A stretch of 64,000 nucleotides of DNA, from positions 620,001-684,000 of the forward strand of contig CM114271.1 of NCBI GenBank assembly GCA_050084515.1. Reading direction: 5' to 3'. Position numbers and translations under genes: made by a program. Of the stretch, positions 19,273 to 55,230 are shown in pieces. A model generated the notes under the pieces. The model had not been told where the DNA came from. It was given only the letters and a program-made list of their open reading frames with translations, and searched no databases. Source of the stretch: Blasia pusilla (taxonomy: Eukaryota). The first letter of the stretch is position 1, and the number at the start of each line of letters is the position of its first letter.

Positions 19273-20194
19273 ATATAGACTTTCCTTCATTTTATTGTTG
19301 GTGGAATAAAAATGGCAATTTTTTAAACGTGGTCATAATGGTTGTGGACTACCTCTTGGTTGCTAATACCTCATATGCCCAAGTAAGAATTATGGAATTG
19401 CTGCATCTATGTATGGTGTTACGTTTAGCAACATCAAATTCTTTCCTCATATTTCTTTTATTACCATATTCAAGTAATTGGTTATATCTTTACTTTGTGT
19501 ATAAGGGAAGTAGAGTATCATTGGAAAATATTTCTTTTACACCATATTTGAGGTGAAACCTTATATGAAGATATAAGGATAATTAATGGAGTGATGAATT
19601 ACAGCTTAAAGGAAGTTGTTGTTCAATAAGGTCTTTTGGAGGATGATCAGGAACGAGGTTGCATGTGGAAAAAAATCACTGTGTGCAAGCATGTCCTTGG
19701 ACTTATGGAAGGACTTGTCAATATGGGGCCCACCTCCACCTCCCCCTTATTTCTCATCCTTCCCATTCGCCTTTGTAATCCCCACTTTCAGGTTTCTCCC
19801 ACCTCCACTCCCTCCCTCTTTATTGCCTTGCCTTGCCTTGCCTTGCGTTCCCATACTCTGCCTTCCATCATGAGCTGTACGTATGGGTCCTACCTCTTGC
19901 AATCCATGTCTATGGACATATCCTTCCTAAGGACAGTGTCGTGCGCATACACATCGCTACACAACATACATCGCTGTCTCTGAACACACACATAAATACA
20001 CACGATCCCATGCTAACTCATGGCATCCAAACAACGAGACAAGAAATACAAAAATATCTCCAATCTCGATGATAGCCACAACATTGAGCGTGGTTTGGGG
20101 TACTGCACATGGAGATGAGGGTCCTATTGTCCGAGACGAGGTTGCACCATAGCAACCACCGACATCCGCGCCGGATAGTCCTATTGTAGTCACA

Positions 20195-20772
20195 ATGGAG
20201 ACTTGGCAGCCAGATATGGGCCCTAAGTTGACAGGAGGAGAGCGGCGTCGGATACACCACTTCCTTAGGAGTTATAGGAGTTGTTTTGCATTTAGTATGC
20301 ATGATTTTGGTATGTTGAAGGGTCGAGGGATCCGCATTGAGTTATCGAGTGACACGTTGATCTTCCGACGATCCTACAGGTACAGTGACATGGAGAGGGC
20401 TCTAATTTAGAGTAGGATCCAAGACTTGGTTGGAGTAGGACTAGTGGAGATGTGGCATGGAGAGTATGCGTCTGCCATTGTCATGCCGCCAAGAAGGATG
20501 TGCATGGCAATTGGACGAATAGGCGAATGTGTGGAGATTACCAACCTATCAATCGGTAGACGAAGTCCAATAGGTATGCCATGCCCACCCCTGAGGAGAT
20601 CTTTGATGCGATTGGGCATGCAAAGGTCTTCAGTTCATTGGATTTGCGAGCGGGATACCATCAGCTGCCTATCAGATTGGAGGACAGGTAGAACACGACA
20701 TTTTGGGGCATCGATCCTCACGGGAAGGATTTTTTGTACCAATGGCGGTTCTTACCATTCGGGTTAAAGAAC
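20195..20772 (+). pseudogene. Ty3/gypsy reverse transcriptase, N-terminal fragment, inverted relative to the element
   Basis: IFRRSYRYS...LVE...YASAIVMP.KKD...RRMCGDYQPIN...YAMPTPEEIFDAIGHAKVFSSLDLRAGYHQLPI...FLPFGLKN; truncated before YxDD; stops and a frameshift. Confidence 0.92.
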
Positions 20773-21721
20773 CTCGCTCATCGGCGTTGGGCTCCACCAA
20801 CCTTTGTACCTGGTCATTCCAAACCAAGCCAGGTCCGGCCTCCTTGAATGCATAGGAAGCGAGAAAACTCACCAATATGGAAAAGCCCGCTCATGGCATG
20901 CCAATCCTGTTGACCACACTCAACGGCGGTTGATCATCGCGCCTCACTGCTTGTGATCGACGGCCCAGATCCAATATAGAATCCACCAACAAATCGGATG
21001 GACACTCCACTCTTGCATAAGCCCTGCGCAATATCTCATGTGGTATCAAGTTGATCCACCAAAGATACGGATAGTGCACTCTAGAATCTACACTCGCCGC
21101 ATCTAACAACACTGCCGGGCCAATCCATGCGCGCACCTGATGTGCACTCGTCACCACGCGGGACCTCGAATCGCCCAAAGTTGGCACATTCTCCAAAATG
21201 TGTGCCGGAGAACAAGGCTGATGCTCTTGTAAATGTCGCAAGATCTGCCTCATCTTCCAAAATAACCTGGACCGAGTGTCAGCTAACCCGCTACCTCGTC
21301 CAACACTCGATTGGCCTTGACACGGCCAACCAACAATGACCAAGTCTATGGTCCCTACCCTCTCCAAGTCCTGCGCCCCCAACAATAAAATGTCCCTCGG
21401 TAGGGAACTCTGGTAACCTTGAATGACGGGCGCAGACAACAAGTCGGGAAAACGGAGGCGTAACAGCGCCACATGGTGAAGTGAAGCGTGGCTCGCAATA
21501 TCATCAATCTCCACATATAGGTAATGTTGCACGCACACTCTAGCGTGCAAAACAACAGCGAACCCAGTGCTGATCCCTCCAAAGAGATCCAACACCTGAA
21601 TACCCTCCTCTGGGATGCACCACACAATCGGGGTGGTGTCCAAAGGGGTCATAGCAACACTCCTACCTACCTGGAGCTCCTCTGACCCATCACACTCTCT
21701 AGTGCAAGTGTCTCGCTCCAT
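20773..21721 (-). pseudogene. Retrotransposon-encoded DNMT3-like C5 cytosine methyltransferase domain
   Basis: ORF 20891-21721 has motif I VLDLFGGISTG, motif II YLYVEID, motif IV DLVIVGWPCQGQS, motif VI HILENV and a degenerate motif VIII LDAASVDSRVHYPYLWWINL. It continues after a frameshift (LVSFLASYAFKEAGPGLVW...EPNADER) to a breakpoint at 20773; the C-terminal motif X is missing. Confidence 0.92.
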
Positions 21722-21750
21722 GCGGTTTGCACATGGTCAATGGCTAAGCG

Positions 21751-22400
21751 TCAAAGCTCCTCAGTCGAGCCCCAAAGCGGCACCTCTCCTCCACGAACTA
21801 ATGCGGCTACCATGACACTCCTCTCCATAAAAATGTCAGGAATGGGAGTATTCTCTGCATGGACATTTCCCTCAATCAAATCACTAGGCCAAGTGATGAC
21901 ACTACTAAATGCTGCTAAGGTCGCCATCTCTCCTGGCCCTCGCTTGATCACTGCACTTGTGAATCGAATGGGTAATGAGCTAAGGTGCCCATCACCTGAC
22001 TGCCATCCTGGTCTGTTGGACGCTGACTCCTCCCAATAATCCAGGGAAAACACCATGGAGTTTAACACTGCTCCACCAACCAAGACGTCGTAGGACTCTA
22101 CTTCAGTCACCATGCCTTGGCTCGTACCACGGACTTATTTGGAGGATGTCCCTAGCGAATTCTCACCAAGACCTCCTGTCGGGTGATATACTGTATGGTA
22201 CTCGCTCCATCCAAGGAAGTTTGTATCCAGAATGGACAATGCTCCACATCGGCTCTTGTCAAGCCCAATCCTCTGAATGACGCTTTCCCAAACATTAGGG
22301 GTTGCGCTTCTGAATCCAACAAGACGCGCTACGGACTAAAAGCTCTACCTCCGGGACTCACCAACTAGAAGACCTCTCCTTAGTTATCCAGCAACACAAC
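21751..22400 (-). pseudogene. Retropepsin-type aspartic protease region
   Basis: RVLLDSEAQPLMLG at ~22300-22330 (DSG changed to DSE), CPFWIQTSLDG, and YDVLVGGAVL in ORF 21751-22113. Confidence 0.75.
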
Positions 22401-24411
22401 ACGAGTAGAATCCATGGCACGTTCTATTGCAGGTCTAGCGGGCATCTCTGCCATCCTAGCAGCTGTAGCCTGCCATAAATCTGACGTGGACAGCCCGAGC
22501 ATCTGCTCCAAGGGCAGGTCCATCACCTCCTTTGCAATCACCTCTAAACGTGATGCAATAACTCCAACTCCACGCTCACATAGCGTAGCCGCCAGCCGAA
22601 AAACCTCGGCGGGCGTACCTCCCAACGTCATAACATCGGAAGCAAAAAATAAAGGAGCGCGGTACACAACGGTGGCCGCCCCCAACAATGTGCTTGACAC
22701 TTGCCTCTCTTGAGCATCAGCAATAGGAGTCGTCGCACTCGCTTCTCTCATCGCCCTCTGTGCCTGCACACCAACAACATCACCAACTCTCCAAGAACTC
22801 TTATCGGGACCCATCGATGGGGTCCTCATCGCCTCGGGAAACGTGAAAGACTGAGGAAGCCTAGTATGTTTCCTGGCTTCCCCTCGTTGTGGATCCAACT
22901 CTGTGGCTGCTCCACGCGTCATAAGTGTGGCGGCCTCCATCTGGGCAACCTCGCACATCCAACCAGGATCCTCCATATCTCTTGCTGCTCCATATGATGT
23001 TGATGCCATGGATCCGGCATCGGGTAATCTCAATGCCATAGTGGCAATCTGCTCCTGTAGCTGATGTATTTGAGCAGCCATCCTAGCCTCACGCTTGGCG
23101 TCTCCCTCAACGTGTCTAGGTGGTGGGACTCTACCTCCTCCACGGGCAGCTCCACCATCCTGTGGGGCAACTCCATCTCCTCTTCCTCCAACGGGACCAC
23201 CTGATGCACGATCTCTAGCCCACCCGGACCGGCTACTCGCTCTGGTGCCCTCTCTGGCCCTTGGTCCGGACGTAACTCAGGATGTAAACTGAAACACCTG
23301 GTGCGTGTATGACCATACCTTTGACAATAGTCATACTGATAACCTCGTGGTGCAGCACAATCTCCTCCTCCGTGCTGAGCACACGTCCATGACCCTGACG
23401 AGTGCAATCACGTTGATGATGAGCTCCATCACATGACCAACAAGTAATTGTAGGCGGCTGCTACTGAGCCGCATATGAGGGCGTAGGTCTCTGTGGCACA
23501 GCCTCCCGATATCCTCCTTGAGCTCGTAGTGCCATAGTCGACCTATCTCGGAGTCCACGTTGCTGCAGAGGTGGTGCAGACAATCGTGACTGCTCTCGCC
23601 CAGAACCCATGGTGGCTACGCTGTCCTCCGCCATGTTGCGCTCAATGTTCTCGATGGTCCTAAAAACATCTCTCAACGTAGGGGAGGTGTTCATAAGAAG
23701 CAGCCCTCCCGCACTAGTGTCCGCAGGATCCGATCGAGCATCGTGTACCATGATTGGATAGCGTGAGCCTCTGTCACCCCCTGAGTGATGTTGATCAACC
23801 GGCGCAAGCGAATGTAAGCCTCACGCAAACTCTCCCCCGAGCGCCTCTGGAAGTCGTGGATGCTCCACAACTTCTCCGTCCGTACCCCTAGTAGCTCGCC
23901 CTCAACTCAACGAAGAACTCAACCACGGGGTTGAACTTGGGACGAACCCGACTAGATGGTGCAACTACTCCAGTGCGGGTGACCCCTCCTAAACATCACT
24001 AGTGGAAGAGGAAGTAGGCTCTCTTGACTCCTCCTCCTCATCTCGGAACGGCTCCTTCCATGACACATAGTATGGGTCATAGTAGAGTCGCCATGCCTCA
24101 ATCTCCTTGGCATATCTGTGGGAGAACTCATGGTAATCGTCCTTGGGCGCCCCCTCTAAATGCTGGAACATACTGTTCCATGCTGTAAACGGATTCAACT
24201 CTCTAGAGTTCCTAGCCCGCTGTGAGTCACACCAACTCCTAAACTCCGCAATGAAGTCGTGTAGTTGTATAGTGCCTACAACACCCGAAAACCTACGCGG
24301 TCCTCTACCTCGGTCATCCATCTCGTACGCCCAAGTGGTAGGACCACTCAATATGTACGGTGGATTGCTAACACACTCCTCTATATGCTCCCCCTCATCT
24401 GAAGACGACAT
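22400..24411 (-). pseudogene. Gag-like region with CCHC zinc knuckle
   Basis: Fragmented ORFs: RRFSGVVGTIQLHDFIAEFRSWCD, IHDFQRRSGESLREAYIRLRRL (~23800-23860), knuckle YDYCQRYGHTRTRCFSLHPEL (~23270-23335). Confidence 0.8.
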
Positions 24412-24666
24412 AGAAGGAGATCGAGATGGTCTCTCACGTGGAGACCCTCAAAACCACGCACCATTCCGGGTAAACCCTCCAAAGCTACTCTAAGCTCCAC
24501 TACCTCGCCTCCCAAAATCTCGAAAGGACGTCGTGATGGACCTCATGCCCCTCTCACATGATCACTCTCAATCTCGCGAGTAATCCCTCAATCACTCAAA
24601 CTAAACATGCGGCACTCAATTTACACTCTCTCATTGAGACGTGTGTTGTACGGCAACAAACAACGT

Positions 24667-25930
24667 TGTCGTATAATAAAATCAGCCAGTGTGTAAACTC
24701 CTTCCACATTAAGTGTTAGATAGAGTTGTATTAATATTAAATAAATTAGCTTAGGAAAAAGAAATTCCCATGTTTAAACCTCTTTATGGTGCCTCTTTTA
24801 TGCGGGCCCAACTTTAGGAAAAGAGATGATTTTATAAAAGTAAAGTAGTGAGGTTGGTGCTTTAATGAAAAGCAAAAGTAGTCTTGGTTGATGGCTAGGT
24901 TAGTTGGGGTAATTTGGAAAATATCAAGTGGGTAAAAGAGGATATTTTGGAAGAGATAAGAAGAAATCTACTTGTGTCAAAATATGATTGGCTAAGCCTT
25001 GAGAGAAAGCCATGTGGTAGAAGATAAGATTAGCTCTATTTCGTACTCTTGTGGATCCCTTGTGAGTATATAAAGAGGAGGGACCTTCAAGGGTTCATCA
25101 TCTTCTATTTTACATCTTGAGTCTCTCGTGTCACTCTTGAGTGTATGACTTTGGGATTGCTTGCTTTTCCAATGAGAGTGGATCATCCCTCTTGGGAGAA
25201 TAACTTGACCATGATCTATTCTTCGAGAGGTTTCTAGAGTGTGGTGTGTGTGTGGAGATGAGAGGCTTGTCACCTTAGAGGAGTTTAGTTATACTAAAAT
25301 AGTGAATATTTTGGCTTGTTATTTTCCCAATGAGAGTGGATTATTCCTCTTGGAAGAATAATTCCGCCAAAGTCCATTCTTGAAGAGAGTAGATAATGTT
25401 TGTCAAGCATGGATAGGGGTGGAGCAAGAGTTGTGCTCGACTTTCCTTTCCTCAATCCATACCATGTAAAGGTACTCTTTGTAGATAGGCACTGGTTTAC
25501 TCGCTATTTAGTTTATGACTTTGGGGAGACACTCATGAACCAGGTCATGCAATCTCCAACTCCGGTGATTCTTCCTATCGTCATATACGGAAGAACATGG
25601 GATTATACTTTATATGTCCTTATATAGCAATCCATGGAAGTCAATAGGCCTACTCAAGTAGGGTTTAACATTAGTTGAACTATCTTCCTCGTATACAAGT
25701 GTAAAGTAGTTTATAAGGATTTTATAGTTAGGAATTTCGGGGTCTGATGTTACGAAGAAGTGATCGCCTCGGCACTTCCATTTGTGATACCTGTCGTGAG
25801 AGAATGGAGAGTATACTTTATAATTTTGTATTGAAAAAGGAGAACTTCTTAGAGAGATCACCTTGCATCGACCACGTGTGCCACAACTAGTAAGGTTGTC
25901 CTTACTCGAAGAAAGGCTCTTGACATGACA
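24667..25930. mobile_element. 1264-bp TGTCGT...ATGACA repeat, copy 2, nested in the DNMT element leader
   Basis: Flanked by ACGT on both sides (24663-24666 / 25931-25934); near-identical to 11063-12326. Confidence 0.88.
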
Positions 25931-28660
25931 ACGTGATGTGGCAAATCATTGATCTGTCATCTCATCGACAAACCATCCTCAACTCTGGACATCCACACAG
26001 GTCTATGTCCCCTAAACCCATAGATCATGAATGCTCCTAGCATCAGCACGAAGCTCAATATTCAAATAACTTCCCAATATCCGGAAATCCCTCACACGTT
26101 CAGGGTAAGAGACCAGAATGGATAACCTGACAATAATATCGATGTCGCTCCTCGGCAAGTGCAAATCTCGACCCCAACTCGGTCGTAAAGACAACTCCTC
26201 CAATCAGCAAGTCGTACTCCTCTCGTACTCATGCTGCTCAAACCTCCTCGATGTGCGGTGCAGGTCCAGCGGTCCGGTGCGGCAATGGCGGCACGGAACG
26301 GCTACAAATGGCACGGCACTCAAGAATGGGATGTGGCACTCGGCGGCATACCCTCCTCAATCAGAAATTCACACGCTCTGCTCCTTAGTGAAGGAGCGGC
26401 TACGTGATCGAGACGGTGCAGCCACGAGCGGCAGGGCGCAGCAATGGGCAACGCGTTGCGGCTACGGGCGTCACGGCACGATACTCGATCGTCGTTGAGC
26501 GGCTATCAATCATAACATAGCAGCATGAAATGAAAACTCAAACACCATAACCCCAGGTCATCTGCCATCACTGGTTGATGAGGAAAGTACGATGATGGTG
26601 GCGGCAAAAACAAAGTACGTGGTGGCGCAGCAAGTCACAGAATCAACGGTCGTGGTGGAAGACCCTCCATTCCATAATGGCGGCAACGGCAACCAAAGGG
26701 TGGACAACGGACGAACGCGGCTCTGAGCAATGGGCGGCAGCGGCCGACAGTGGACGGTGGACCGTTGATAGTGACGATTGATCGTTGATGGTGACGACCG
26801 ACCGTTGACGGTGATGATTGACCGTTGACCATTGATCGTTGACTAGTGATGGTGACAATTGACCATCGACGGTGGACCATTGACGGTGACTATGACGGCG
26901 GCGACTGCCACGGCGTGGTGGCTGGTTTAGGGTTTGAACAATTTAACCCTAAAAATCGCCTAGCAATGGTAGTTTTGTAAGATTGACCATAACTTTTTGC
27001 TCGCAACTCCAAATTGCGCACCATATGTTGCACAACATGCATAGCTTCATGATCTACAACAAAATCAAAAAATATTTTGAATTGAACATTCCAGTAAAAA
27101 TTGACGAGGACTATTATAAAGCCCAATGTCTCTTTCTCCTACACAAAATTCGGCAGTGCTTCCGTGCTGATTTCTCCCAACGAAAATGTAAAACCTGTAC
27201 AAATACAAATCAACAAGCTACATGGTGCTCCTGAGAGCATCGGCATGGGGCAACCCGCCCCCATACTCAATCCCTATCAAAAGTTGGGCAGCGCTTCCGC
27301 GCGCCATTCGTCCAGACGAAAAATCGGCAAAGGAAACATTACAAGTAAGCGGCTCTTGCTCCGGTGAGCACTCCCATGAACCGCTGAACGGGGAATATGG
27401 TCCCCAACCTGGAAAACCAATGAGTGACCAGCGAGCTCCGCCATGACACTCTCTCACTCACCCATTCTCTCTTTGTAAAATAAGATCCAATCTCTCTCAC
27501 AACACCATAGTTCTCACATGTGTGCACTCTCATATGTCTCTCTCACCGTCAAACCAAACCCACTCTCCTAATGAGAGGCTTGGGTTACACACACAAGGCA
27601 AGCAAGACCATAGCTCCACCGCCTCATGCCAAGAGGTTCAACAAAGAGAGAATGAGCTCTCAAGCTCTCTCTCCTTGAGATATACCCCTCCCCTCTCCCA
27701 AGCTCTCTCCATGGTAACCTATGCTCCCAAGTCACGTCATTGGCTCTTGACCTGATGTAGGAGGTCAAAGGTCACTTACTAAAAATAGAAAGTCGATCAT
27801 ATACTCAAAATGGTAATTACCAAAAATAAAAAGTCGATCATATACTCAAAATGGTACTTATCTAAAATAGAAAGTTCTTCAATATGGCTCTAAATGAGCC
27901 GAAATGAAGGGGAAACCTGCTCTCTTAGGTTTCCAATGGCCTTAGCAGGTCATCCTCGACCTATTGAGCCTGTCCTCCACTACTCACGAAGGCGATCTAC
28001 TAGATCTCACCGACATATCCTAAAAGACGTGACAACAGACTTATCTGTTTTTGTGCAACCATGATCAAGAAATAATCTCTTACTTACAAGAAGCCCTAAA
28101 GATTCATACGTGTTGCTTTCTTCATAGGCTCTTTATTGTTATTCTAGCTTGTAACACTCTTGCTCAACCGATCTTATTATGGGAATAATATTTGGTATAT
28201 TTTACCAATGACCTATTTTACCTACGATGTGAGATAGCCTTCCATTTCCAATTTTCTATTTATCTACATTCTCATTCCTACCACGTCTCTCATACTAAAT
28301 GTTGACACTTATTTGATTTTTTGTGATAATGTCATTTTAGAGAACAAGACTTCCAAACCTACCTTTGGATTTGATTACCATAAATAGCATATTATTAGAA
28401 GTGGACTACCATCTACAACTTTACAAGATCAAGGAAAAAGATTGTCAAACTTTCCAGATTTGCCTCAACCCACTTTCCATACACACACTACTATGCCAAC
28501 ACATTTAGAAGAAATAAGGCTTCTAAACAATCAAGACAAATTGTTGGAAAGAGTTATAGTTGGAGAGTCAAAATTTAATAATGGCCATGGTGTGGTTTGG
28601 GATGCTCTACATGAGGAGATAGAAAATATTCTTTAGAATGCTCCGCCATCACCAAAATTA

Positions 28661-28826
28661 CTAGTGGGCAGCCCGTGTCATGTACGGGAAGGATTAATCA
28701 TGTTGCGCACAAAATTTTTTTCTTGCTGCCTATAGAGAGGTAAATATTTTTTTTCTGCCCGGTTGCCACATGTCAAGCAAAGAGGTGTTTGCAAATCAAG
28801 AAGGTACTCTCCAATAGTAATATAGA
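28661..28826 (-). mobile_element. Complete 166-bp non-autonomous Helitron
   Basis: On minus: 5'-TCTATATTAC..., 3' hairpin CCCGT-acatgac-ACGGG, terminal CTAG. Inserted at an A|T site with no TSD; removing it restores the helicase frame KLFFIDSLGRAGK. Confidence 0.9.
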
Positions 28827-30151: not shown

Positions 30152-33007
30152 TTCTTTTGCCATGACTATTAGTAAATTTTAAGGTCAAATATTGCAAAAG
30201 GTGAGCATATACTTGCTACACGAGTCTGTTTCCTCATGGAAAACTTTACGTGGCTTTATCTAGAGTAAGTGTAAGGAGTTTGATTCATATTATGATACAA
30301 AATGATATTCAATCGAATTACGAAGGTTAGTTTATGCACAATGTTGTTCATAAAGAAATTTTGAATGAAAATATATTCACATAAAATCTATATTATTATT
30401 AGCGAACCTCCTCCCTATTCGAAAAGCATCCATCAAGTTCGAATTATTTTTTCTTCGTACCACCCTAAAATATGTCTTTTTTCGTTCTTTTGGTTATTTA
30501 TGGTTGAGGATAGCTAATGATGGAGATTTTGAAATCTACACGAGCAAAACAACACACACCTCAATAGTATTGTAATATGATCTAATGGGGCATATATTCA
30601 ATGAATATTGACACAATTTTTATTTACATATGTTTAATTTAATTTTGTAAGGGAGTTAATCAATTCTACATTTGAATCCTTAAAATGTTGCGTAGGTCAT
30701 TTGGATGGTAGTACTAGTTCAAATAGTTTGACATACCCGTGATTCCTTCGACGCATATATAATAAAATTTATTATATATAGAATGAAGATATTATTATAG
30801 TATGAAATTAGAACTTGAATTCATATAAGTCAAAAATATACCATTCATACTCATGTTAATATTGCTAGGGACTACTAATGATTGGTCATGGAAGGATTTA
30901 AATGCCCCCAAATCCATGAAAGGATGTGAACGCATATTTTTTGTGCGATGGAATGGAATCTGAGCTCACAACAGTTGAGAGGACATACTTCTGAATGAAA
31001 AGAAAGAAATAAAAAAGTGGGTGGATTCGCGATTATAATCGCGTCAAACCTGAAAAGAAGGAGAAAAAGTAACAGTCGCCCGCGTGATTGTTTGCGGCAT
31101 CACATTTATGGAGCCCCGCTCGTAGGGCGTTCGAGCCGCCAATGGTGGGCAAGAAAACATGACAGGCACTCGGAGTTGTTTGCCACACAGGGATAACGTT
31201 TACGGATTAACTTAATTTTCTAAGAGAGTCAGGGTTTAAGGTTGTTTAATTTTTCCCGTGTTTCACCTGACACGTGTATACTACATCTAGATTTTTTTTA
31301 CATGATAACGTCTAGATGTTTTTTATTCAGGGATAACGATTACTGGTTTGTTTAATCTTCTTAGGCAGGCAGCATTTATAGTTATTTAATTTTCGCAGAG
31401 ATCTAACATTTAGATTTTTTTTCCGTAGGGATAAGGTTTACTGATTTGATAAATTTTGTTAGAGAAGCAGCTGTTGTAATTATTTCATTTTCTTTTAGAG
31501 GTCGTGTTTATAGTCCTTTAACTTAATTTATGGTTGATGATTATTTCACTTTTTTAGAGAGGCAAATTCTATGGTTTCTACCCCAAATTTCCCAATAATT
31601 GACTTTGTGCGGATGGCCAACAACGCAACACATACATTCTTCTTGAACAATTCTATGTATGATTCATCAGCTAGGATTAAAATCGATAGGGGTGAATACC
31701 CATTTTCATATGTACACTTCAAAACGAGAAACCATGTTTTCCACGATTTTGCTTACCTCTTGAATAACACTTCCACCATCTCACTTGGAGTCTCACTAAT
31801 TTATTATTTGGGAACCTTTTTTTAAGCCTTCCTGTGTTAAGGGCCAAAGATACAATTAATTAAGTGCTAAAAGTGTCAATTTTCACCGCGCGGGTGAAAA
31901 TATGATATTAAAAGTTATTAAAGGAGGTTTAAAGAGGACCCCTCTTGTGCTAAACATATCATTTTCCACCCGCGCAGGACCCGGGCAGTATTTATTATTA
32001 ATGTTCAGCTTGTTAATTTTGCTAGAGATGTAACGTTTATAGAGATTTTGTTCGTAGGACCGTGTGACGGGCAGACGATGGAAGCGACAGGATGCTGAGG
32101 AGAGTTCATTCGTTCGCTCCACCGGAAAGCACAGGAGAGGAAAAGCGTCGTATGCGTGCGTGCTCCGAAGCGATGGCGGTGAGAGGACAGGACGGAGGAG
32201 GCAGAGGTAGCGGAGGGAGGAGGGCCCACAAGAAGGTTCTGGACCACTCCTTCGCTCTCGCTGCGTCCGGAGCGCGCGGCTCCGCACCGTTGGTTTCAGC
32301 CCATGTAGCAGCGCCTGGCCTCGTCTCCCTCTCTCCTCCGCCATTGGTGCGCCTGCGTATCTTCGCTATTGGTGCGGGTTCTCGCAGTATGGCCCGGCGT
32401 GAGCGCCTTCTTCCTGCTTCACTTTTTCAGCCGCGGGCGGGCTTTGCCAGAGCTCCCATTCCTGCGTCGTCGTCCTTTGGTGTTTTACTATTATAAAGCC
32501 GTGTTCGCTGTGGGGTAATCAGTGCGCGCAGCGGATTCGTTGTTGGATTTCAGGCGGGCCTCGCGCTGCGCTGCCCTTCCGAAATTTCGGAGCGTACGAT
32601 ACTCCAGCTCGGGGAACCACCGGGGCGTCGTTCCAGACGCTTTAAACATTCAAGAAGTGTGCGGGTGCTTGTGGGGCGCTCATGGGTGTTTGTGATGGTT
32701 TCTGAAACGTTTCGGTGATCGAGTGGTCGCCTCGAGCTTCGCTAATTGGTTGCTCGGCAGAGTCGTCGCTGGTTTCAATTCTACCGTGCGTTAGCTTTTC
32801 TTTATTTATTCCTTTAAATCGTTCTTCCCAAAGCCGCTGGTGTTATTCCTCCTTTTGAAGTTTCTGAAGCCATTTCTACCACCAAAATGCAACCTGTTGA
32901 GTGCGTTCCTTACGCGGGAATGGTTACCGTTGGCGCAGCACAATAATCCGTTCGTGATAGTATTTTTCTTGTATATCATTCTTCACTGGTCGGTGCCTAG
33001 CCCGAAG

Positions 33008-42777: not shown

Positions 42778-44616
42778 GCCATTTTATTAGTTGAGACTTG
42801 GAGAGGATCATATGTCAAGAGGAGAGGTGTTTGAAAATAAGAAGGCTCCCTCCAATAATTATATAGATGGAAATGAAAATACCATCAATTTCTTAAAAAT
42901 TATATTTATAAAGTCTAAAAATAGATTTCTAAACAAGTAATTTTGGAAACGTGCATCTTAAAATCTAAAATTGGGTTTGGCTCAACGGGTTTAATCTTGG
43001 GTGGAGAAACGGCATAATTATGTTAGACCATCTCCTAACATGTAGATAAATGTGGGCTTTCAGGTAATATTGATTTGTGTACTCAGTTGTAAATAAAACT
43101 TAAATGGATCCATTTGGATGCAAAAACTTAAACAAGAAGTGATAGTGGTGAATTTTAGGTCATTTTTCAAGAGCTAGGAGGCCAAACTTGAATCCATACT
43201 CTCCTTTTTTTGTGTGATGCAAATTTATAATTAGCGTGAGTGGTAGTGAGTGCTTCTAATGGACCAATACGCACAAAATTGCAATTAATTATGGCCCTTA
43301 CAAGCACTCGATGTTATGTTTTCTCTTTCACTTGAGGCACAACGGACTTTGATCCCAATTGAAGGTGCAATATTCTAAATCATGTGTGAATGGAAGCGCT
43401 TTGGAATTCCATGTGATGAGTGAAACTTCACAGTAGAAATCCAAATTTCTCAAAAATCTAATGAATGTGAATAGAGATTTTAAATTTTAAGAAAAATTGT
43501 AATTGTTGTACTTTTTGGGGAAAATTTCCCAATTCTAATATTGTAGCATTTCATAAAATTTTGTAATTTTTATGGAAGTTAGTAATCATTTTTAAGCTAG
43601 CTAAACTTGATACAATTGAGCACTTGCAAAACATTTTAGAATAGTCCATAATAAATTAAAAGATCTTCTTCTTCATTTTTAGGAATTTATTGTAAAGATA
43701 ATGAATCACTAAAAATCAAAAATTGAGGAAGAGAAGGATCCAAGGACTTTTTATCACCAAATCGATCATAAAGCTCATTTTGGAATTGTTTGCTATCCAC
43801 AAAAATTGCATATATATTCCAACATCACTTGTCAACATGTTATCTTTTTCATATACACACACCAATTCCAATATTTTATATACCCACTTTTCAACTATTA
43901 AGCCAAACTCAAACAGATTTTTGAGACCACAAACAATACAATTTAAACGTATACCAAAACACAACGTTTCATGGATACTTGTGAGTTCAAAAATTTTTGG
44001 AGACACCAAAGTTAATGTGTGTCGTTAATATACTTAGAATGTAACTCCTAATAACAAGTTATATGAAATATACCATATACCGTACTAATTTACATGTTCC
44101 ACGGGGAGGAGAAAAGTTTCAAGCTCCTTCTCTTGGGATTCGCAAGCATATGGGTTTGGCAAAATTGTGGGAGCCCAAATATAGAAGTAAAGGAATTGAT
44201 CCAACATAGATCATTTGTTGGTTATGGAACTTATCACATCATAGTTAGTCGATAGTTAGAGTTCTATCATGTTCACATCGCTCGCAACAATGTAGGGTGT
44301 TAGTAGGATATTTGAATACAAATATCCTACTATAAATATCCTAGAAATAGCTACAAATTTGAATTGATTGGTCAAGTAAAGTTAGTCATAGCTTCGTTAC
44401 ATCCAAGGTTTGGCAAAAAACCTTAGGCAAAATTTGTAATTTTCTAGAAAAAAAATTTAGCCGCAGACTAGAGTCAATAGAAACCAAAGGTACCTTGGCT
44501 ATATTCTAGGCACCAAATTTGTGCCAAAAATGGCACCATAGGTTTGCTAATTGGGCATCAAAGGTACGGCGGTGCCCTAGGAATGGCCCGTTGGGTGTCA
44601 AAGGTACACTAGAAAT

Positions 44617-45463: not shown

Positions 45464-46548
45464 TATAGTGCGCGTACACATCACTAGTCATATCTACATA
45501 ACACACAACACTCATCTTTCCAACACACAGGTAGATCCACATATAAATGAAATACATTCATGCATGTGCACCAAGACCACACAATAAAATTGAAGTGAAA
45601 ATGGCTCACATGGCCAACTTCACTCTTGAATTTACACGTGATATCAAACCATATATATCCACCCTCCGCTGTGAGGGAATCCGACTCTAGCATCCTAGTT
45701 CCTACCAAACACTAAGCAAGAGAGGTATTCCAATGGCTCAACATGAGAAAGATGGATTGCGGAAGCCCTCTCTTCCTCTCTTATACCCTTGGGAAGAGGC
45801 AAAAGATCTTCCCCCAAAAATAGCCCTCCAAATTGTAACTTGAGTGCACAAGTTATCGGGTGACCCTTGACTCAATCAATGGGTCACTTTGTTAAAAATT
45901 GTTAAGAGGGAAATTTTCATAAAAAATGATCCCCATGCAATGGACTTGTTGCCAATCTCATCCAACACGTCAGGACAAAGTTACGCCCAAAAATCCTACT
46001 CACCCTCTATTTTGTCAATAAAGTAGAACTCTATCCGCTACATAAGATGCAAGGTTGCACACGGACAAAGTCTGTGTCCACGAAAATGTCCATGTCTGTT
46101 GACTTATGTTCGTCCTAGGGATGGACATGTCCTCGAGGGCTCAAGTACTCGCGGCCCGCACTCTAGCCCACCGTGAGCCCCCCGCGTAGACCTAGGCTCA
46201 TCAAGCGTGCACCCGTATTGTGGCCCGCGTGCAACATGAATTAGGCTATTAGCATGTGGTAGGCTTGCATGGCGGGTTGGGTCCTAATTGGAAGGGCTCA
46301 AGCCTGTATAGGGCCTTAAAACCCTAAACCCTAAGCCCGCCCAACGGAAGCCCTACCTACCCCGTGGGGTCTTGTTGCGGGCTCGTATAGGTTGCACGTG
46401 GGCCACAAATGGGTGTTGGCTCAGCCAACCTGGGTCTACACGACGGGCTTAGCAACAAGCTCAAATACGGGCCGTGGATATCCGATCGGCATGTCCGTCC
46501 CATAGACAATTTTTTTCCGTTTTCGTGCAACCTTGCTAAAATAGGACA
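45464..46548 (-). mobile_element. Short non-coding derivative of the DNMT retroelement family (~590 bp plus a nested MITE at 46050-46535)
   Basis: Left end TATAGTGCGC matches TGTCGTGCGC; right end AAGATG[MITE]GGACA matches AAGATGTGACA; perfect 4-bp TSD AGTA. Confidence 0.75.
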
Positions 46549-47820
46549 AGTACTTCTTCTTCAAGTAGGTTTATTTGTCAAACAAGCCACTCCTCTTCTA
46601 AATATTTTGTTCTGTACTTCTCATGAGGTACAATGATGCTTTTGTATAAATTATTGTTGGCGTCTCAATATAACTAAGATATGAAAATTGTTATGGGCAT
46701 ATACATCGCTAGTCACGTCTACGCAACTTGCAACATTGATCTTCCCAACACGTAGATAAATCCACACATAAATGAAATATACTCATACATATATACCAAG
46801 ATTACGTTATTCCCCCCCCCCCCCCTAATTGGCAGTTGGGTCCTCCTAATGCCTCATACTAGCCATCACATCTACCTGGCATGATCTACTATCCTATACA
46901 CATCTAGCATCATCAATGCTCTCATACCCGCAATATCTTCCAATACATGCTTGCCCTGGATTCCATTTCATCTATCTCTACCTCGAGATATATTTCATCT
47001 TGCAACATTGCAACTAACCTCCGTGTTGATCCTTACGAAGAGATCTAACACTCTCACATCTTCCTTTGGATGTTGCCTCACAATAGGTGTGGTATCCAAG
47101 AATATGAAGTCTCCACTCCAAGAGCATGACCATCACCTCATCTATTACAAGAAAAAAAGCATGACTCCATGTCTACCTCATTGGCCCTCATGAGCTCGTC
47201 TACACTTCTCTACAAGTCAACGCTTGTAACCACTGATGATGACGAGGTCTCATTACCATCGGAAGAGAAACCCATCTTGGCATGTCTCTCCACAGGACTA
47301 TCCTCTATTGGGACGTCCTCTCCATGAGTGCTCCTCTCCAACAACTCCCTCACCAACTACTCAGTCCCCATGAATACTCCCAATTTGGTTATGGTATCAC
47401 CTCGTAGACCACCACTACATCCTCCAAATCGCAAAAGTACGTAAATGGTCATCCATCTATCACCTGGTCGCCATCCTAGCCGATAAGCAACCATTCCATT
47501 CCAAAATTGAGGATTAAACCAACGGGGTATAATACTGTAATCCCTACCAACGTATCATACAACTTTGTTGGTATTGTTATTGTAGGAGAGCATACCATCA
47601 CACTATCTGATGCATGCTTCAAGTCTCACAACTAGCTCTTGCAAGTCATGTATTGTGTGGACAACCCATCCTCAATAAAGGTCTGTATCTAAAAGGGACA
47701 AGGCTCAATGTTGCCTTCCCATAATCCCAACCCCAAACACGTCATCTTCCCTACGAGCTTCCCTACTATAAGGGGTTTCATTCCCAAGTCAAGTCAGACG
47801 CCTTACGGATGATACACTCT

Positions 47821-48991
47821 TGTCGTGCGCAAACACATCGCTACACAGTCCATATTTTTGGTCATATCCACACTATACAACATTGATCTTCCCAATATAG
47901 AGATACATCCACTCATATACAAAAATGAACTCATGCATGTACATTAAGATCACACAAGGTACCCCGAAGTTGGCAATTAGGTCTCCCTAACTCCTTAGTA
48001 TATATCACACATATCTGACATGACCTACTATCCTATACACATCTAGGATATAACCATCATCCCATAGAGATTGCACCAAGAGGGAAGGTCAAATACGATA
48101 TATGCCATTCTCTAGAACAACTATCACACATCAACATGGTACATGGCTGCACCTATTGTAGGTCCACACAACATACATCTCAAGCCCATAGGCACCACTG
48201 CCAAGCTTGGATCCACTATCCCATCCATATTTGGAAGATGACAAGGCACATAGTTGCATGCATGATCCTTCCGAACCATACTATCTTGTCCTTCCAACAC
48301 GAGGACTCCGGTCAGTAACACCTTGCGAACACGCAAAAGCATGCACCCTACAATGACATATAGGGTCGTGGGTGTTGAAGATCTTTCTTCTCTAAAATTT
48401 GAGTACAAATAGCTCACATAGCGAAATCCAAATCTATATTGGCATATTGAGCCACATCCACCCTCCTCTATGAGGAAGTCCAGACACTAGCACACGCAAA
48501 AGCATGTGCCATATAATTACATCTAGGGTCGTGGGTGCTAAGGATCTTTCTTATGTAAAATCTCAATAAAAATGGCTCACATGGTGAGAGCTACTCTTGA
48601 ATATATATTGGCGTATTGAGCCACATCAACCCTCCTCTATGAGAGAGTTTGGATACTAGCACCCAAGTTCCTTCTACACACAAAGCAAGAGAGGTGCTCC
48701 TAAGGCTCAACGTAAGAAATATGGCTTGAGAAAGCCATATCTCCCTCCCTTATAGCCTTCAATGATAACGTGCATGCACAAGTTACCAGGTGACCCTTCA
48801 CTCAATCAACAAGTTACTTGTCTGAAAAAGACCAATATACAAAATTGCTCAAAAAAAACTTTTCCAACGCAATGGACCTGCCATCAACCTCATTTCAACA
48901 CTTGAGGATGAAGTTACACCCAAACAACCCGCTGATCCTCTATGTTGTCAATATGGTAGAACTCTATTTGTTGGCTTACTAAGATGTGACA
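47821..48991 (-). mobile_element. 1.17-kb internally deleted derivative retaining the polyprotein tail and PHD finger, nested in the protease of copy 2
   Basis: Termini TGTCGTGCGC and AAGATGTGACA. The host protease sequence is contiguous across it, with 4 extra nt that may be a decayed TSD. Confidence 0.75.
48033..48345 (-). pseudogene. Polyprotein C-terminus (probable integrase tail) with PHD finger
   Basis: LRVRKVLLTGVLVLEGQD...DHACNYVPCHLPNMDG..DP...CMLCG...(frameshift)TMLMCDSCSREWHISYLTFPLGAISMG*WLYPRCV-stop, a decayed C4HC3 pattern. Confidence 0.78.
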
Positions 48992-51900
48992 CCATACATA
49001 GGGTACAAACCAAGCGGAACACCTTGCTTTGGTTTTTCAACAACACCACATCTAGTGTCACCTTGGCTCACTCTATCAAGTCAAGTTAGCATATCTACCA
49101 ACTTTGCCAATGAAACCTACCATGATTGAGTGGAGACATCCCGAGCACCTACTCTGAGGGCATGTCCACCACCTTCTCAATGACTACCTCCGAACACAAA
49201 GTATTAACCTCTCCATGCTCACACAATGTGACAGCCAATTGGAACACCTCTGCTCATTCAACTCCCAATGTTGCCAAGTCCAACCATATAGGAAAACAAT
49301 GGAGCCTAACTCACCCTAATGGCCATCTCTGATAAAGTAGTTGATACTAACTCCACCTGAGCTGACATAGAAGTCGCCTCTCCAACTCTTTGTGACGTGG
49401 ACACACTTGTTACACTTGTGGGTACCGTTGGTCATCTAGCTAAGCACCATCATTAATGGTGTATGTCATGCCTCCAACAATGTAAAAGACAATGGAACCC
49501 TATCCTATTTCCCATTTCTCCCCTTGTGTGGGTCTATCTCAATCCCAACTCTCTATGTCTTGGTCACTCCCATAGCACCTCAAGTCACCACAACAATAGC
49601 CTCTACATGAGCCGCACTATAGATAAATCTCAAACTAGCGTAATCCTCCTCCCTTGTATCTTCATACGACGTAGAGGTTGGAGCTAAATTAGCTACTCTT
49701 GGCTTTGTGTCAATCATTGTTTGGGTCATTTTCATGTCAAAAATCCTCATCTCCAATTCATTGATACAAGCGAGGACCGCTATGTAGAGTGCACCATCAC
49801 CGTCATCTCCTGTGATTGATGGTGGAACTCCACCATCACGGTTATCAGCTCCTCACCCTCCACCAACTCTCTCATCCTTAGGCCCTCAACCTACCTCTAG
49901 ACGTATCTCTTGGCAAAGATTAAAACACCTATCCCTATTATGATCATATTGGTAACAACAATCAAACTCAAGCTATAGTGTGGCCATTCTATATGGCTCT
50001 TGAACAATGAGAGGCGTCCTCAATCCTCTACCATGATGTGGGCAATCCCTTTGCCTATGGGATCCACCGCACATCCAACAAGCCAAAATTGATCCTTGCT
50101 AGCCAATGTATGTCGACACAAGTTGTTGTCTCATGTGCTCACAATACCGGCCCTGCTCTGGGGGCACACCGGCCTACTCTCGTGGCATTGGTGCACGTTG
50201 GGGCACTCATGCATCCATTGAATCTTATGGGAATCCTGCTCCTCACTCATTTTGAGTTCAATCTACTAAGACAATTGAATAACCCCTTCAATATGGGATT
50301 CAAGCTTCAATATACATGTGAGGCAAAATTCCATCCAAAACTCTCCTTCACACCTCTCAATCTAGAACCTTGTACCAATACTAAATTGCATCTACCTTAG
50401 TCACTCCATGATGGCAATGATCAATCACTGTTTGCATCAAACGCCTCCTATAGACTCTCACCTAATCTCAATTGAAACTCCCATAGACTATTCAGCTTGT
50501 TAGTTTGCACGCCTTGGTAGCTCCTCCCCAACTCTCGGAGTAACTCCACCATAGGACTGAAACTAGGCAACCCTCTACCACCTTAGGTCTTTATCATCTC
50601 ACAACCATTACTTTTGTTATCTCCATCTAGTCCTTGGGCTAATGATGTGGATCTAACTGCTCTCACTACCCCATCATATGTCTCATAACTGCTAGTGGAC
50701 ACATATCTTGGAGCCTAATACACCTTCCAAGCATCAATCTCTAGTGCGTGGAAAGACCAAACTCACAATAATCATCTATTGAAAATCCCTCTAAATGCTA
50801 GAATAAACCCTTTCACACCATGAAAGGATTGAAGGGCATAGGAAATTGTATATCCTAGAAATCACACCTTATGTCAAAGTCTTGGATGAAGTCATCAAGA
50901 TTAAGGGTGCCTACTGCATTCGAGAAATGACGCATGCCCCTGTGGCTGATATTGTCCATCTCTCCCCACGTAATAATGTCTCTGTCTGCGATCTTATCAC
51001 TAGATCCTCTATCTCGTGATGATGATCCAAACACGAATGATAGTCGAGCTGGTTCCTCACTTGAAATCCCTCAATAGCTTACTTTGGCCCGTTCCTTGTA
51101 ATACCACTATCACTGCTCAAACCATATACCCTGTTCTTCTTAACCTTGGAAGAACATCGTGATTGCAACCCTACCTCACATGCATACTCACACACCCAAG
51201 CATTTGGACTTACTTAGAGTCTTCCGCATCTTTACTAGCTCACCTATGTCAATGCTAGTCCCATGATGACACATAATTGTCCTCATGCGCACTCAATCAC
51301 TTGAGCCCACACCGAGCCTCTCGTACTAACTCACCTAAACTATCAACAACCTTGGATTATACACACGACCCCCACTAGGACAACAACCCTATACCCACAA
51401 ACACGCTACATACACAAAGAGTCTACACTCAACACCATCGCTACACCCATCTAGAACTAGCTCTATCCAATACCCAACACCTCCAATGACACAAGATAAG
51501 TGTGGGAAAGGGACTTGAATGGATAATCTGAACATGCACGCAATCACTCTATCGCCTAATCAATATTGAGTCTTCCATGTGGTGCAGTAACCTTTTTGGC
51601 ACGACAATCTCATCGAACCTTTTGTGAACCGATGCGGACTACCCGTCGGTATTGGTGCATGTGTATTTATCTCTAGCCCTCCGTTGCAAACTCTCGGCGT
51701 GAATAACCCATCTCAATACTAGCAAGTCAAAATTATGTCAACGATTTGCAATGAGGGGCAAATCTCGCCACAAATCGCAATATGCACTTGGAAACACCAA
51801 GTCGTAAAAATCATGGAGAAACCTCTCCAATCAACTGCCTATCCTCTTGGAGGTTAGGTGGTCAATCCTATTATGTTGGATTTCTTGACCACGTAGCTAC

Positions 51901-54900
51901 AATATCATGTCTCATTCCATTGTCATGACCATATGGATTATGTTGTAAAGTATAGTGTGCTAGTAGAGGCCATACCTTATGTAGGGCCGTAGTGTCTAGG
52001 TAGAGATGCAATTTCATACATAGGGTTGGGGGTTACTCAGTTGAGGGTGACTTTCCCAGTAGGGCCCGCTCTTAGGTTGGAGGATATAGTGTGGAGTGCA
52101 CTCAAAGAACAGTTAGTTCTTTGAGTTGAGCATGTTGCGTTGGGAGTTAGCCTTGGTAGTGAGTAGAGCTCTTGGTTATGATGGTTCCCGCAAGCTTCGA
52201 CCTAGATTCTTCCATCAGGGAGTGGGTTTGGCTTGATTGTATGTGATTCTATACGTGTTTTATGACAGTAGGTCTTTCACGGATTTCACTCAAAGAATTG
52301 GAGTAGATCAATGGTAGCTTCGATCGTGGATCAGTAGGATCTGGTTAGGGCTGATTGTGTACTCATCCATGGATATTCGTGGCTTGTGGCCTATGTTGGA
52401 GGTGGAAATATGATGCATGGTTGGTTGGGAAAGAAGCGCCATTTTGAGAGCTTTTCAACGCCCTTTAGATCGCCATATTTTGTCAAGGGAGTTGGAAGTT
52501 ATCAAGGATTGAAGATTCTGGTTCGTGTTCGACGGTTTTCTGATATGGAGAGCTTGGAGTGCGAAAGCTCTGTTGAAGTTCATCCAGATCAGGTGAGAGG
52601 TTCCTATTGCTATGTGTATTGTGATCTCATGTGAAGCTATCTTCTTGAGTGTGTGGAGTGTTGCGGATTTCTGTGTGCATGAATCTGGGCGGAAGCGCTG
52701 TCGGATTTGCGATTCTGGAGGTGTATGGATAGCAAGTTTGTCTGATGTTTAGCTCGGAGTACACATCTCAATTGTAGCTGATTTTTTGTGGAGAGATAGC
52801 TATGGTGGTCAATTGAATTCAAGTTGAAATAGATTCAATTTTGGTCTAGGATTTGTGAAGTACTTGTTGATCAAAATTTTGTGGACTAGCTCAAGGTCTG
52901 GCTATGGTGGACAGCAGATCGGAGGGGCTGGTTGGTTGGTGACTCGTTCGTTGTTGGAGACGCCTATCCCATTGGGGGCGCCTTGGTTGGGCCTCTCTCC
53001 ATAGCGAAGCATGGCGAACGAGGCATGTCTCGAGCATTTTGAGGCTTCGAGGCAACTCGTGGTAGCTCGGGACGAGTGGGCGTGAGAAGCGGAGGAAGGA
53101 GCAAGGAGCAAGCAAGCAAGCTTGCTTGCTTGGGCATAAGGCAGTTTTTGCAAGAATTGTGAGTTGAGTGTTGCATAACTAGTCACCCATCTTTGGGCTA
53201 TTCTGCCTGGAAGACACTTAACTGCTAAGTTCTTAACTATGCCAATGTAGACACTAGTGTAGCTCATTTGGTGCTGTTCGGAGATGTGCTAGGCGCTTTA
53301 TGCATCTTGGGTTTTTGGTTGATGGACCTCTAGCGCATAGTACGGTGTAGCCTCTCCATGCAGGTGATATTTTTAGGTGTTGCAAGCCCGACTAGCACGT
53401 CATCGACCCGTGGCGGAGTAGCTATTGCATTAGAATTTTGTGGTGGGTTCTGGCGATTCAGGGAGCGCCACGTTTGGTGGATTGTGTTACCTTGATTTCT
53501 ATTTGCGATTGAAGGGTTGTTGTTGGACTTCCTATGTTTGGATCCCCTCCATCGTTGCTTCTTGCTTGCGCGCCCATTATTAGGGTTGACGCTGATTTCC
53601 AAAGTAGTTTTACTCATGTGTGCTACCGGTAGTGAGGTTGGAGTGATGACCAATAGACCGTGGGAGGCTTCTTGTGGTGATGACATGTTAGGTTGCCTAC
53701 ACCCATAGCTAGTAGAGCTAGAATAGTACGGCGACATCGACGTCACTTGGTTACTTTGTGGTTGTGATTTGGTGGTGGTGCGGCATCGGCGTTGGTCATC
53801 ACATAACTGTCTGGTGGTCTGGTTGGGGACCGTGGTGTAGATAGTGGTGGTTTTACATGGAGTGGATTAAGGTATCGGCTACGTTTTCCACTTCCGAAAA
53901 GGTGGCGACGGAAGTCAAAGAATCAACAAACGTCGTGGAAGACCCTCCACTTCGTAATGGCGGCAATGGCAACCAAAGGGTGGACAACGGACGGTGGGCC
54001 ATTGACGGTAACGATTGACCGTTGATGGTGACGGTGACCGTTGACCATTGACCAATGATGGTGATGGTTGACCATTGACGGTGACTATGACGGTGGCGGC
54101 TGGTTTAGGGTTTGAACAATTTAACCCTAAAAATTACCTAACAATGGAAGTTTTGCAAGATTGACCATAACTTTTTGCTCGCAACTCCAAATTATACATT
54201 GTTTGTTGCATAGCATGCACAACTTCACAATCTACGATAATGTTTAAAAATATTTAGAATCAAACATTCCAATAAGAATTGATGGGGATTGTTGTAAAGC
54301 CCAATGTCTCTTTCTCCTACACAAAATTTGGCAGCGCTTCCGTCCTGATTTCTCCCAAAAAAATGTAAAACCTATAAAAATACAAATCAACAAGCTACAT
54401 GGTGCTCCTGAGAGCACCAGCATGGGGCAATCCGCCCCCATAATCAATCCCTATACAAAATTGGGCAGCGCTCCCGCGCGCCACTCTTCCACACAAAAAA
54501 TCGGCAAATGGAAACAACAATCAAAGCAGCCCTTGCTCTGATGAGCACTCCCATGAGCCTCTGAATGGGGAACACGGTCCCCAACCTGCAAAAACAGCGA
54601 GTGACCAGCGAGCTCCCCCATAAAGCTCTCTCACTCTCTCATTCTCTCTTTGTAAAGTAAGATCCAATCTCTCTCTACACCATCTCACACCATAGCTCTC
54701 AAAGGTGTGCACTCTCTCTCATGTCAAACCAAACCCACCCTTCTAATGGGAGGATTGGGTTACACTCATAAGGCAAGGGACCATAGCTCCGCCGCCTTAT
54801 GCCAAGAGATTCAACAAAGAGAGAATGAGCTCTCAAGCTCTCTCTCTCTCTCCTTGAGATATACTCCTTCCCTCTCCCAAGCTCTCTCCATGGTAACCTA

Positions 54901-55168
54901 TGCTCCCAAGTCACCTCCTTGACTCTTGACCTGATGTAGGAGGTCAAGGTCCACTTACAAAAAATATAAATTTGATCACATACTCAAAATGGTACTTACC
55001 TAAAATAGTAAGTTCCTCAATATGGCTCCAAATGAGCCGAAACGAAAGGGAAACCTGCTCTCTTTCAAGTTTTCCGGGGCCTCAGCAGGTCATCTTCAAC
55101 CTACTGAGCCTGTCCTCCACTACTCACAAAAGCTCTCTACTAGATCTCACCGATCTATCCCTAGAGAC

Positions 55169-55170
<2 letters not shown>

Positions 55171-55230
<60 letters not shown>

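Follow-up and report, generated by a model that had tools for sequence, protein, structure and literature searches.

The window analysed here is a 64,000-nucleotide stretch of Blasia pusilla DNA (assembly GCA_050084515.1, contig CM114271.1, positions 620,001 to 684,000 of the forward strand). It holds four related retroelement units, all on the minus strand. These are decayed derivatives only; whole copies of the family lie elsewhere in the genome, and the parent is probably a high-copy Ty3/Gypsy-type retrotransposon whose integrase would cut at a site inside the long terminal repeat (LTR). Two unlike termini are named throughout: A starts with TGTCAC and B ends with CACGACA, while NN denotes a 2-nt spacer. 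Units 1, 2, 3 and 4 occupy 19937–28034, 45464–46548, 47821–48991 and 46689–55172, respectively. Their features are given below (RT, reverse transcriptase; PR, protease; TSD, target-site duplication; PBS, site of primer binding; PPT, polypurine tract).

19933–19936 (left) and 28035–28038 (right), plus strand: 4-bp TSD ACAG flanking unit 1.
19937–20064, minus strand: repeat B of unit 1, 128 bp, ending CACGACA; 93% match to B of a whole copy, its first bases abutting an inverted RT fragment and not a PPT.
20070–20772, plus strand: inverted piece from the RT region of the element itself (6891 to about 6155 in the reference).
20773–21736, minus strand: C5 cytosine methyltransferase domain, Dnmt3-like, in the polyprotein (PF00145, E = 3.6e-10); frame broken downstream.
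21737–24666, minus strand: decayed gag (Cys/His knuckle-like motifs) and PR region, named by position and motifs; 84% collinear with a whole copy.
24667–25930, minus strand: nested 1264-bp unit of another family (TGTCATG...TACGACA) with TSD ACGT, foreign to the element.
27463–27476, minus strand: PBS directly after A1, complementary to 27641–27654 (14-nt exact pair).
27641–27654, minus strand: self-primer and predicted 5′ end of the transcript, located about 30 nt past the TATA box at about 27684.
27477–28034, minus strand: repeat A1 of unit 1, starting TGTCAC and containing the TATA box and self-primer.
45464–46548, minus strand: unit 2, a solo A-B with the A/B joint at about 45585 and TSD AGTA.
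46689–55172, minus strand: unit 4, a mosaic deletion derivative of two subfamilies, its TG end lost in a microsatellite.
Parts of unit 4, minus strand: A, 55172–54654; PBS, 54653–54638; leader, to 53901; other repeats, about 53900–51616.
Parts of unit 4, continued, minus strand: gag-like, 51615–49005; nested unit 3; PR region, 47818–47001; integrase stop; G-run PPT, about 46826–46812; B.
47821–48991, minus strand: unit 3, a short non-autonomous element lying within unit 4, with the order A-PBS-(integrase/PHD tail)-PPT-B and belonging to a sister subfamily; its TSD has decayed or is missing.

An earlier note on the window had described the four units as copies of one structure with a single pair of unlike ends, 4-bp TSDs and no direct repeats. 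The two unlike ends are real, the sole link between them being a TGTC/GACA inverted repeat, and the TSDs are present (ACAG around 19937–28034, AGTA around 45464–46548). As the note had also reported, no B was found in unit 1's 5′ leader, and in units 3 and 4 about 205–212 nt separate the pol stop from the 3′ terminus. The end motifs that it quoted are intact in units 1 and 3 only, whereas units 2 and 4 deviate: the termini of unit 2 read TATAGTGCGCGT... and ...AAAATAGGACA, and unit 4 reads TGTTATGGGC... at one end and lacks a TSD, its opposite end merging into a (GA)n/(TC)n tract. Unit 3, inside unit 4, has no intact TSD (ATGG/AGAG), and its flanks overlap by 4 nt when placed on an intact element. 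Nor do the four units share a common structure. Units 3 and 4 have arisen by deletion, unit 2 consists of a solo A-B, and unit 1 is a rearranged A-internal-B: after A-gag-PR-DNMT comes the inverted RT piece, which runs straight into the start of B, and both PPT and integrase are lacking. The stretch 51616–53900 in unit 4 consists of other genomic repeats (about 90% matches at unrelated loci), and the GC skew is reversed at 52001–54000. On the element strand, two copies have a (TC)n tract immediately before their start, that of the window (55173 onward) and L082; here and below, L numbers denote loci examined in the genome or in metagenomes.

The genome was searched over 390 Mb in 26 contigs. 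A first look gave 5606 and 2749 candidates for the two ends, and in ten copies taken with 20 kb A recurs near the 3′ end, with B on either side of that A. The whole inserted form is A-gag/PR/Dnmt3-like/RT/RH/integrase/PHD-B-NN-A-B (RH, RNase H), written A1-internal-B1-NN-A2-B2, in which A measures about 515 bp and B about 128 bp. Exact B-NN-A junctions number 951 genome-wide (reversed control, 0), far more than chance would produce. Among the first 30 junction loci a second B lies beyond A in 27 and a G-run immediately precedes the first B in 28, the match between B1 and B2 beginning at the edge of this G-run. The reported absence of direct repeats is therefore true within the window and false for the family. 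Extension of twenty junction loci by 10 kb in the upstream direction reached A1 in 13, with whole-copy lengths of 7.6–11.5 kb. Around the whole of A1-internal-B1-NN-A2-B2 the TSD is exact over 4 bp in 11 of these 13, matches at three of four bases in one and is lacking in one. A1 is 90–99% identical to its own A2 (mean between copies, 92.6%), and the own A2 is the best match in six of seven copies.

The individual joints give the same arrangement. Exact counts genome-wide are 811 for A/PBS, 1276 for PPT-B and 1053 for A/B. Of 30 PPT-B loci, two run into flanking DNA and 28 into NN-A, of which a script identified 27 and inspection by eye one (L149). A/B loci (n = 30) are preceded by B-NN in 21 cases, six are solo A-B (TSD exact in three, three of four bases in three) and three were left unassigned; in none does NN-A follow A/B. 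Among 26 resolved A/PBS loci, 24 begin at the flank and two follow a B. The whole form dominates in the genome, and the copy number is on the order of about a thousand or more. The suggestion that the element is repeat-less fails, as whole copies have split direct repeats as well as a PBS and a PPT; that it does without two full flanking LTRs is borne out by the incomplete 5′ repeat of whole copies. The note had also allowed that 45464–46548 might be a solo LTR, with full repeats in intact copies. The first half stands, unit 2 being a solo A-B, equivalent to a solo LTR. Two full TGTCAC...CACGACA repeats are, however, absent from intact copies, whose 5′ repeat always lacks B.

Some copies depart from this form. 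At L009–L010, L025 and L076/L134, PPT-B-NN-A-PBS-internal is arranged in tandem, as head-to-tail multimers joined at the 2-nt junction. L075, L094, L099, L048 and L187 are patchworks built from inverted and shuffled stretches of their own sequence, with joints often at the A end or the B start, and are possibly scars of repair during insertion. L081 was considered as an unpermuted B-NN-A-internal copy; it has a partial B only and is uninformative.

Pfam domains found in natural open reading frames (ORFs) are RVT_1, RT_RNaseH, RT_RNaseH_2, Integrase_H2C2, rve and a C-terminal PHD finger. The rve match upholds the earlier description of a gag/PR/RT element with a DDE integrase. The pol order PR-RT-RH-integrase is that of Gypsy elements, with the protease assigned solely from its position and motifs; Pfam gag and protease models had no match in the element ORFs. 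The closest solved RT structure is that of Ty3 (E = 2.7e-52). The Dnmt3-like methyltransferase in the polyprotein was absent from the earlier description. A profile of six copies matched DNMT3A best among solved structures, weakly (E = 6.9e-05), and the relative P0010 gave a methyltransferase match with E = 1.7e-07; a single degraded DNMT sequence had no match to solved structures, so that a profile was needed. With its Dnmt3-type C5 methyltransferase inside Pol (PF00145, and the weak DNMT3A match) the family resembles the KnitGypsy-Dnmt3 or streptophyte Gypsy-DNMT3 lineage. The tyrosine recombinase family was matched by none of the 45 ORFs (at least 75 aa) of one whole copy, a search whose sensitivity is lowered by broken frames. 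The family thus does not combine a recombinase with the lack of an integrase, as PAT/Ngaro elements do, since rve is present. Its TG..CA ends and 4-bp TSD are those of Ty3/Gypsy elements (4–6 bp), as are the PBS past the 5′ repeat and the PPT ahead of the 3′ repeat. Two complete identical LTRs around the insert are not found, B being missing from the 5′ repeat, and the A-coding-B-A-B split direct repeats are as in the DIRS-type/PAT/Ngaro layout. The integrase bears no chromodomain and the RT lies outside the chromovirus clade.

In the standard scheme of reverse transcription the LTR spans the PPT to the PBS. The sequence immediately past A1 is, in its first bases, an exact reverse complement to part of A, 28–32 nt past the TATA box. 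In one subfamily, that of unit 1, this self-primer complement is 16 nt long in four of seven copies, 10 nt in one and missing in two; in the other a different 14-nt sequence is found in three of three copies. The available passages on Tf1 describe a PBS that pairs with the 5′ end of the element's own transcript (PMC7175516). A ends at a site of this type, the complement in A being the likely transcript start. Because B starts at the edge of the G-run PPT and A ends at the PBS, the LTR of reverse transcription would be B-NN-A. The two integration ends sit head to tail as GACA-RY-TGTC in the middle of the 3′ repeat; they would therefore lie inside this LTR, and A2/B2 would be the joint of the two cDNA ends. 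Inserted copies, so read, would be circular permutations of a two-LTR cDNA.

The A/B joint was inspected by eye in the first 100 of the 1053 matches, with a pattern that allowed at most two extra letters. It is flush in 71, with an extra A in 23, AC in three, and AG, G and T in one each. The extra letters are mostly those that start the PBS or end the PPT. Odd joints retain part of the PPT (L045, L048), read through into the PBS (L046) or include internal DNA in inverted orientation (unit 1, L187, L048). In the first 100 junctions, also read by eye, NN is AC in 36, GT in 29, GC in 25, AT in six and other in four, i.e. purine-pyrimidine in 96 of 100, with AT less frequent than independence predicts (chi-square 15.8). 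NN switches 12 times on a 33-copy tree, among AC, GT and GC even between close copies. CHG sites near the junction are mutated in 9–41% across copies, compared with about 4% per copy between paired repeats. We did not use NN as a mechanistic signature, because decay from GC by CHG mutation may account for it. The permutation is one-way: PPT-B-NN-A has 570 exact matches and true mirror forms have none. The mirror pattern A-B-NN-A gave three matches, all of which are ordinary copies whose flank begins NNTGTCA by chance.

Transcription was followed in raw RNA-seq data from the same species (three runs, one study), in which the reads are family-wide and mostly 85–95% alike. Strongly one-strand reads cover integrase-PPT-B1-NN-A2 at about 90–400× depth. 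Depth drops about 7- to 9-fold, to 13–17×, in the last bin (A2 end, B2 start), a drop that the opposite edge of the covered region does not show. The three runs did not pin down transcript starts or poly(A) sites. The pattern is supportive of, and not proof for, a transcript end near the end of A2, the sense strand being assigned on the assumption of the usual stranded library.

We propose the following course of events. RNA would start in A1 and end near the end of A2. Tf1-like self-priming would then yield an ordinary two-LTR cDNA with the LTR B-NN-A, whose physical ends are not the integration sites. In the left LTR the DDE integrase would make cuts staggered by 2 nt within the internal palindrome, and insertion of both new ends would give the 4-bp TSD. 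Cleavage of this kind has a precedent, as retroviral integrases cleave palindromic LTR-LTR junctions internally according to the available parts of two reports (PMC1905944, PMC1180852). The leftover cDNA ends (A end and B start) would be joined to give A2/B2, whether as a circle before insertion, by host repair after insertion or by an RT jump. The inverted fragments joined to B would fit the insertion of unfinished cDNA. Solo A-B and A-internal-B forms could arise by A1×A2 or B1×B2 recombination, by cutting at both sites or, as in unit 1, by joining of B to an incomplete right end. As for the choice of the left site, our best guess is that the left junction would be the first to become stably double-stranded.

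Several observations weigh against this proposal. The one-way polarity has no explanation within it. If a free two-LTR circle were cut at one junction or the other, both forms would be expected, and the ratio of 570 to 0 excludes that simplest circle model; use of the left site is an added assumption. B1 is closest to its own B2 in just two of seven copies, although with 110 nt the comparison has little power. The self-primer pair is shorter or missing in three of seven copies of one subfamily and in one of three relatives, and two of the 13 whole copies have a TSD that is absent or imperfect. Six RNA reads over the three runs span the A/B joint, and the reads come from a single study and are family-wide with 85–95% likeness. 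While the architecture is read from sequence, the cutting mechanism is inferred, as are the cDNA, the circle and the integrase activity.

The alternative that survives best, although we consider it unlikely, is PAT/Ngaro-like copying combined with a conventional integrase. RNA would run from A1 to B2, B1-NN-A2 would template both ends so that the cDNA ends at the integration sites, the integrase would trim two bases and the A/B joint would be inherited. The repeat order is identical to that given for PAT and Ngaro in the available passages (PMC4157794, PMC3783388), the one-way polarity would need no added assumption and the RNA reads that cross the A/B joint, few as they are, agree with a transcript running on to B2. 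This copying would not predict that repeat boundaries fall at the PBS and PPT, as they do in the two subfamilies and also in relatives, that the A/B joint contains primer-side leftovers and foreign fragments, or that RNA depth falls at the A2 end. Far less probable, and largely refuted by the present data, is the view of the earlier note, in which the replicating form is an LTR-less A-internal-B and short A-B elements inserted beside its end produce A-B-A-B. Window units 1, 3 and 4 do lack a 3′ A-B, and among metagenomic relatives with both ends the form A-internal-B occurs with an exact TSD in four of six; short-read assemblies can, however, collapse B-A-B to B. In the Blasia genome 28 of 30 PPT-B loci run on into NN-A, a single TSD spans all of A1 to B2 while the spacer is 2 nt and no TSD, and A1 is nearest to its own A2 in six of seven copies. 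An A-internal-B transcript would, moreover, have no 3′ copy of R for strand transfer. An ordinary element with the LTR A-B and secondary loss of B from the 5′ LTR has almost nothing left in its favour beyond the solo A-B copies with TG..CA ends and 4-bp TSDs (unit 2 and the six A/B loci), being refuted by the positions of the primer sites, as the PBS directly follows A (811 exact joints), the PPT precedes B1 and not A2 (1276 exact joints) and in none of 30 A/B loci is A-B followed by internal sequence.

Relatives are present in liverworts, mosses and charophytes. The closest named ones are from Calypogeia (74%), Marchantia (63–69%, with PF00145) and Klebsormidium (46%), and placement of the RT, which the earlier note had called for, groups it with elements of these three genera. 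The RT tree was a quick one of 121 rows, midpoint-rooted, with no bootstrap and without a DIRS/PAT RT reference; P0068, one of 120 matches, had a short alignment and was dropped. In this tree a 33-row clade (SH-aLRT 100) holds the Blasia family and two Klebsormidium proteins, apart from chromodomain and Tf2-named rows. A metagenome scan gave 80 loci. Among the 49 with enough DNA past pol, the junction motif recurs in 20, of which 16 also have a second B; several of these loci are duplicates from co-assemblies. Whole metagenomic relatives have an exact 4-bp TSD in three of three cases and the self-primer pair in two of three (14/14 and 13/14, against a control maximum of 12/14). Unlike in the Blasia genome, many metagenomic loci end at B, and in a related family (L227–L270) most loci do so, with flank following; six have both ends, with an exact TSD in four. 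A-internal-B may be commoner in these relatives, or short-read assembly may have collapsed B-A-B to B.

Comparisons with published systems refer to the available passages of the papers cited. The nearest is KnitGypsy-Dnmt3 of Klebsormidium nitens (de Mendoza et al., 2018), for which DIRS-type repeats with Gypsy domains appear in figure legend 4c (PMC5890265) and which shares with the Blasia family Gypsy domains, a Dnmt3-type methyltransferase in Pol and DIRS-like repeats. The Blasia family differs in its land-plant host, its roughly thousand or more copies and its C-terminal PHD finger. The passages on KnitGypsy-Dnmt3, including three supplements, give no TSD, PBS, PPT, junction or mechanism (PMC5890265). 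The two Klebsormidium proteins in the RT clade may belong to this element. The layout is thus already known from one alga, without an explanation; the Blasia element is the land-plant addition, and the mechanism is our proposal. PAT/TOC/Kangaroo and Ngaro elements have the same A1-coding-B1-A2-B2 split direct repeats (PMC4157794, PMC3783388), yet use a tyrosine recombinase and no integrase, whereas the Blasia family has a DDE integrase, Gypsy RT/RNase H, TG..CA ends and a 4-bp TSD. In Tf1/sushi and Tcn1 the PBS likewise complements the 5′ end of the own transcript and not a tRNA, but these have ordinary LTRs and chromodomains (PMC7175516, PMC6317226), in contrast to the PHD finger and separate RT clade found here. 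Troyka, to which the earlier note had pointed, is ruled out: it is described with ordinary LTR pairs, CG..CG ends and 3-bp TSDs, from animals only (PMC12440569), as against TG..CA ends and 4-bp TSDs, and shares only the general gag-PR-RT-RH-integrase order. Retroviral two-LTR junction cleavage resembles our model in that integrase cuts an internal palindrome of abutting LTR ends (PMC1180852, PMC1905944). The retroviral junction forms by ligation after reverse transcription, whereas in Blasia the LTR itself encodes the junction, the RNA carries it and the integrase would require it as substrate.

Retroelements with a DDE integrase are commonly held to insert via the physical ends of their cDNA. 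As primer sites and integration ends do not coincide here, either the integrase or the RT must act in a way not described for LTR elements, and we agree with the earlier note that an unusual replication scheme is implied. A wider reading, which we hold to be slightly better than an even bet, is that of a streptophyte-wide clade of self-priming, PHD-bearing Gypsy elements whose attachment sites have moved inside the LTR and which depend on obligatory left-junction cleavage followed by end-joining, possibly before plus-strand completion. If true, virus-like retroelements would have a third way to integrate, the disputed pathway in which integrase cuts an LTR-LTR junction would have a case that is both natural and obligatory, and the origin of DIRS-type split repeats from ordinary LTRs would gain a possible model. 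A Dnmt3-carrying retrotransposon is in any case placed at high copy in a land plant. No description of the primer-site mapping, the polarity or this mechanism turned up among the open-literature matches listed, and those listed for 'split LTR' and 'permuted LTR' contain neither term; entries in Repbase, in subscription journals or in the main supplement of PMC5890265 could change the verdict on novelty. The REXdb survey required two LTRs, a TSD and TG..CA ends, and surveys of this design would be expected to miss or mis-bound a family of about a thousand or more copies, as standard LTR finders probably would too.

The remaining features of the window are foreign to the family. The segments 24667–25930 and 11063–12326 belong to a fixed-length family of about 1270 bp with 2751 candidates, no long ORF and ends TGTCRTG...TACGACA that resemble the integration motif of the element. 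The four preceding bases are NCGN in nine of 11 copies, and an exact 4-bp TSD is present in four of 11. REXdb gives an NCGN target preference for the Phygy clade; the TSDs of the Blasia family (n = 19) show no NCGN bias, whereas this nested family does, and it may be the solo LTR of a Phygy-like family. The nested 1264-bp unit was also considered as the solo A-B of a sister family, which is not supported, the junction pattern giving 0 matches. Further features are as follows (MITE, miniature inverted-repeat transposable element; TIR, terminal inverted repeat; LINE, long interspersed nuclear element).

2764–3528, minus strand: aspartyl-tRNA-synthetase-like ORF, presumably a host gene exon judging from its motifs.
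32795–34836, plus strand: TPR-like ORF, which from its motifs we take to be a host gene exon.
46049–46536, strand not assigned: MITE bounded by a perfect 12-nt TIR, inserted in unit 2 a few bases in from the A end.
55472–56203, minus strand: LINE-like ORF remnant (zf-RVT below cut-off, E = 0.079), beside the microsatellite adjoining unit 4.

The MITE belongs to a family with nested inverted repeats and the TIR GCAAGGTTGCAC, which is found at 46049–46536 and at about 42190–42780, with a related piece at 19704–19923. A decayed 8-bp duplication, seen by eye at the first copy, would fit a hAT derivative.

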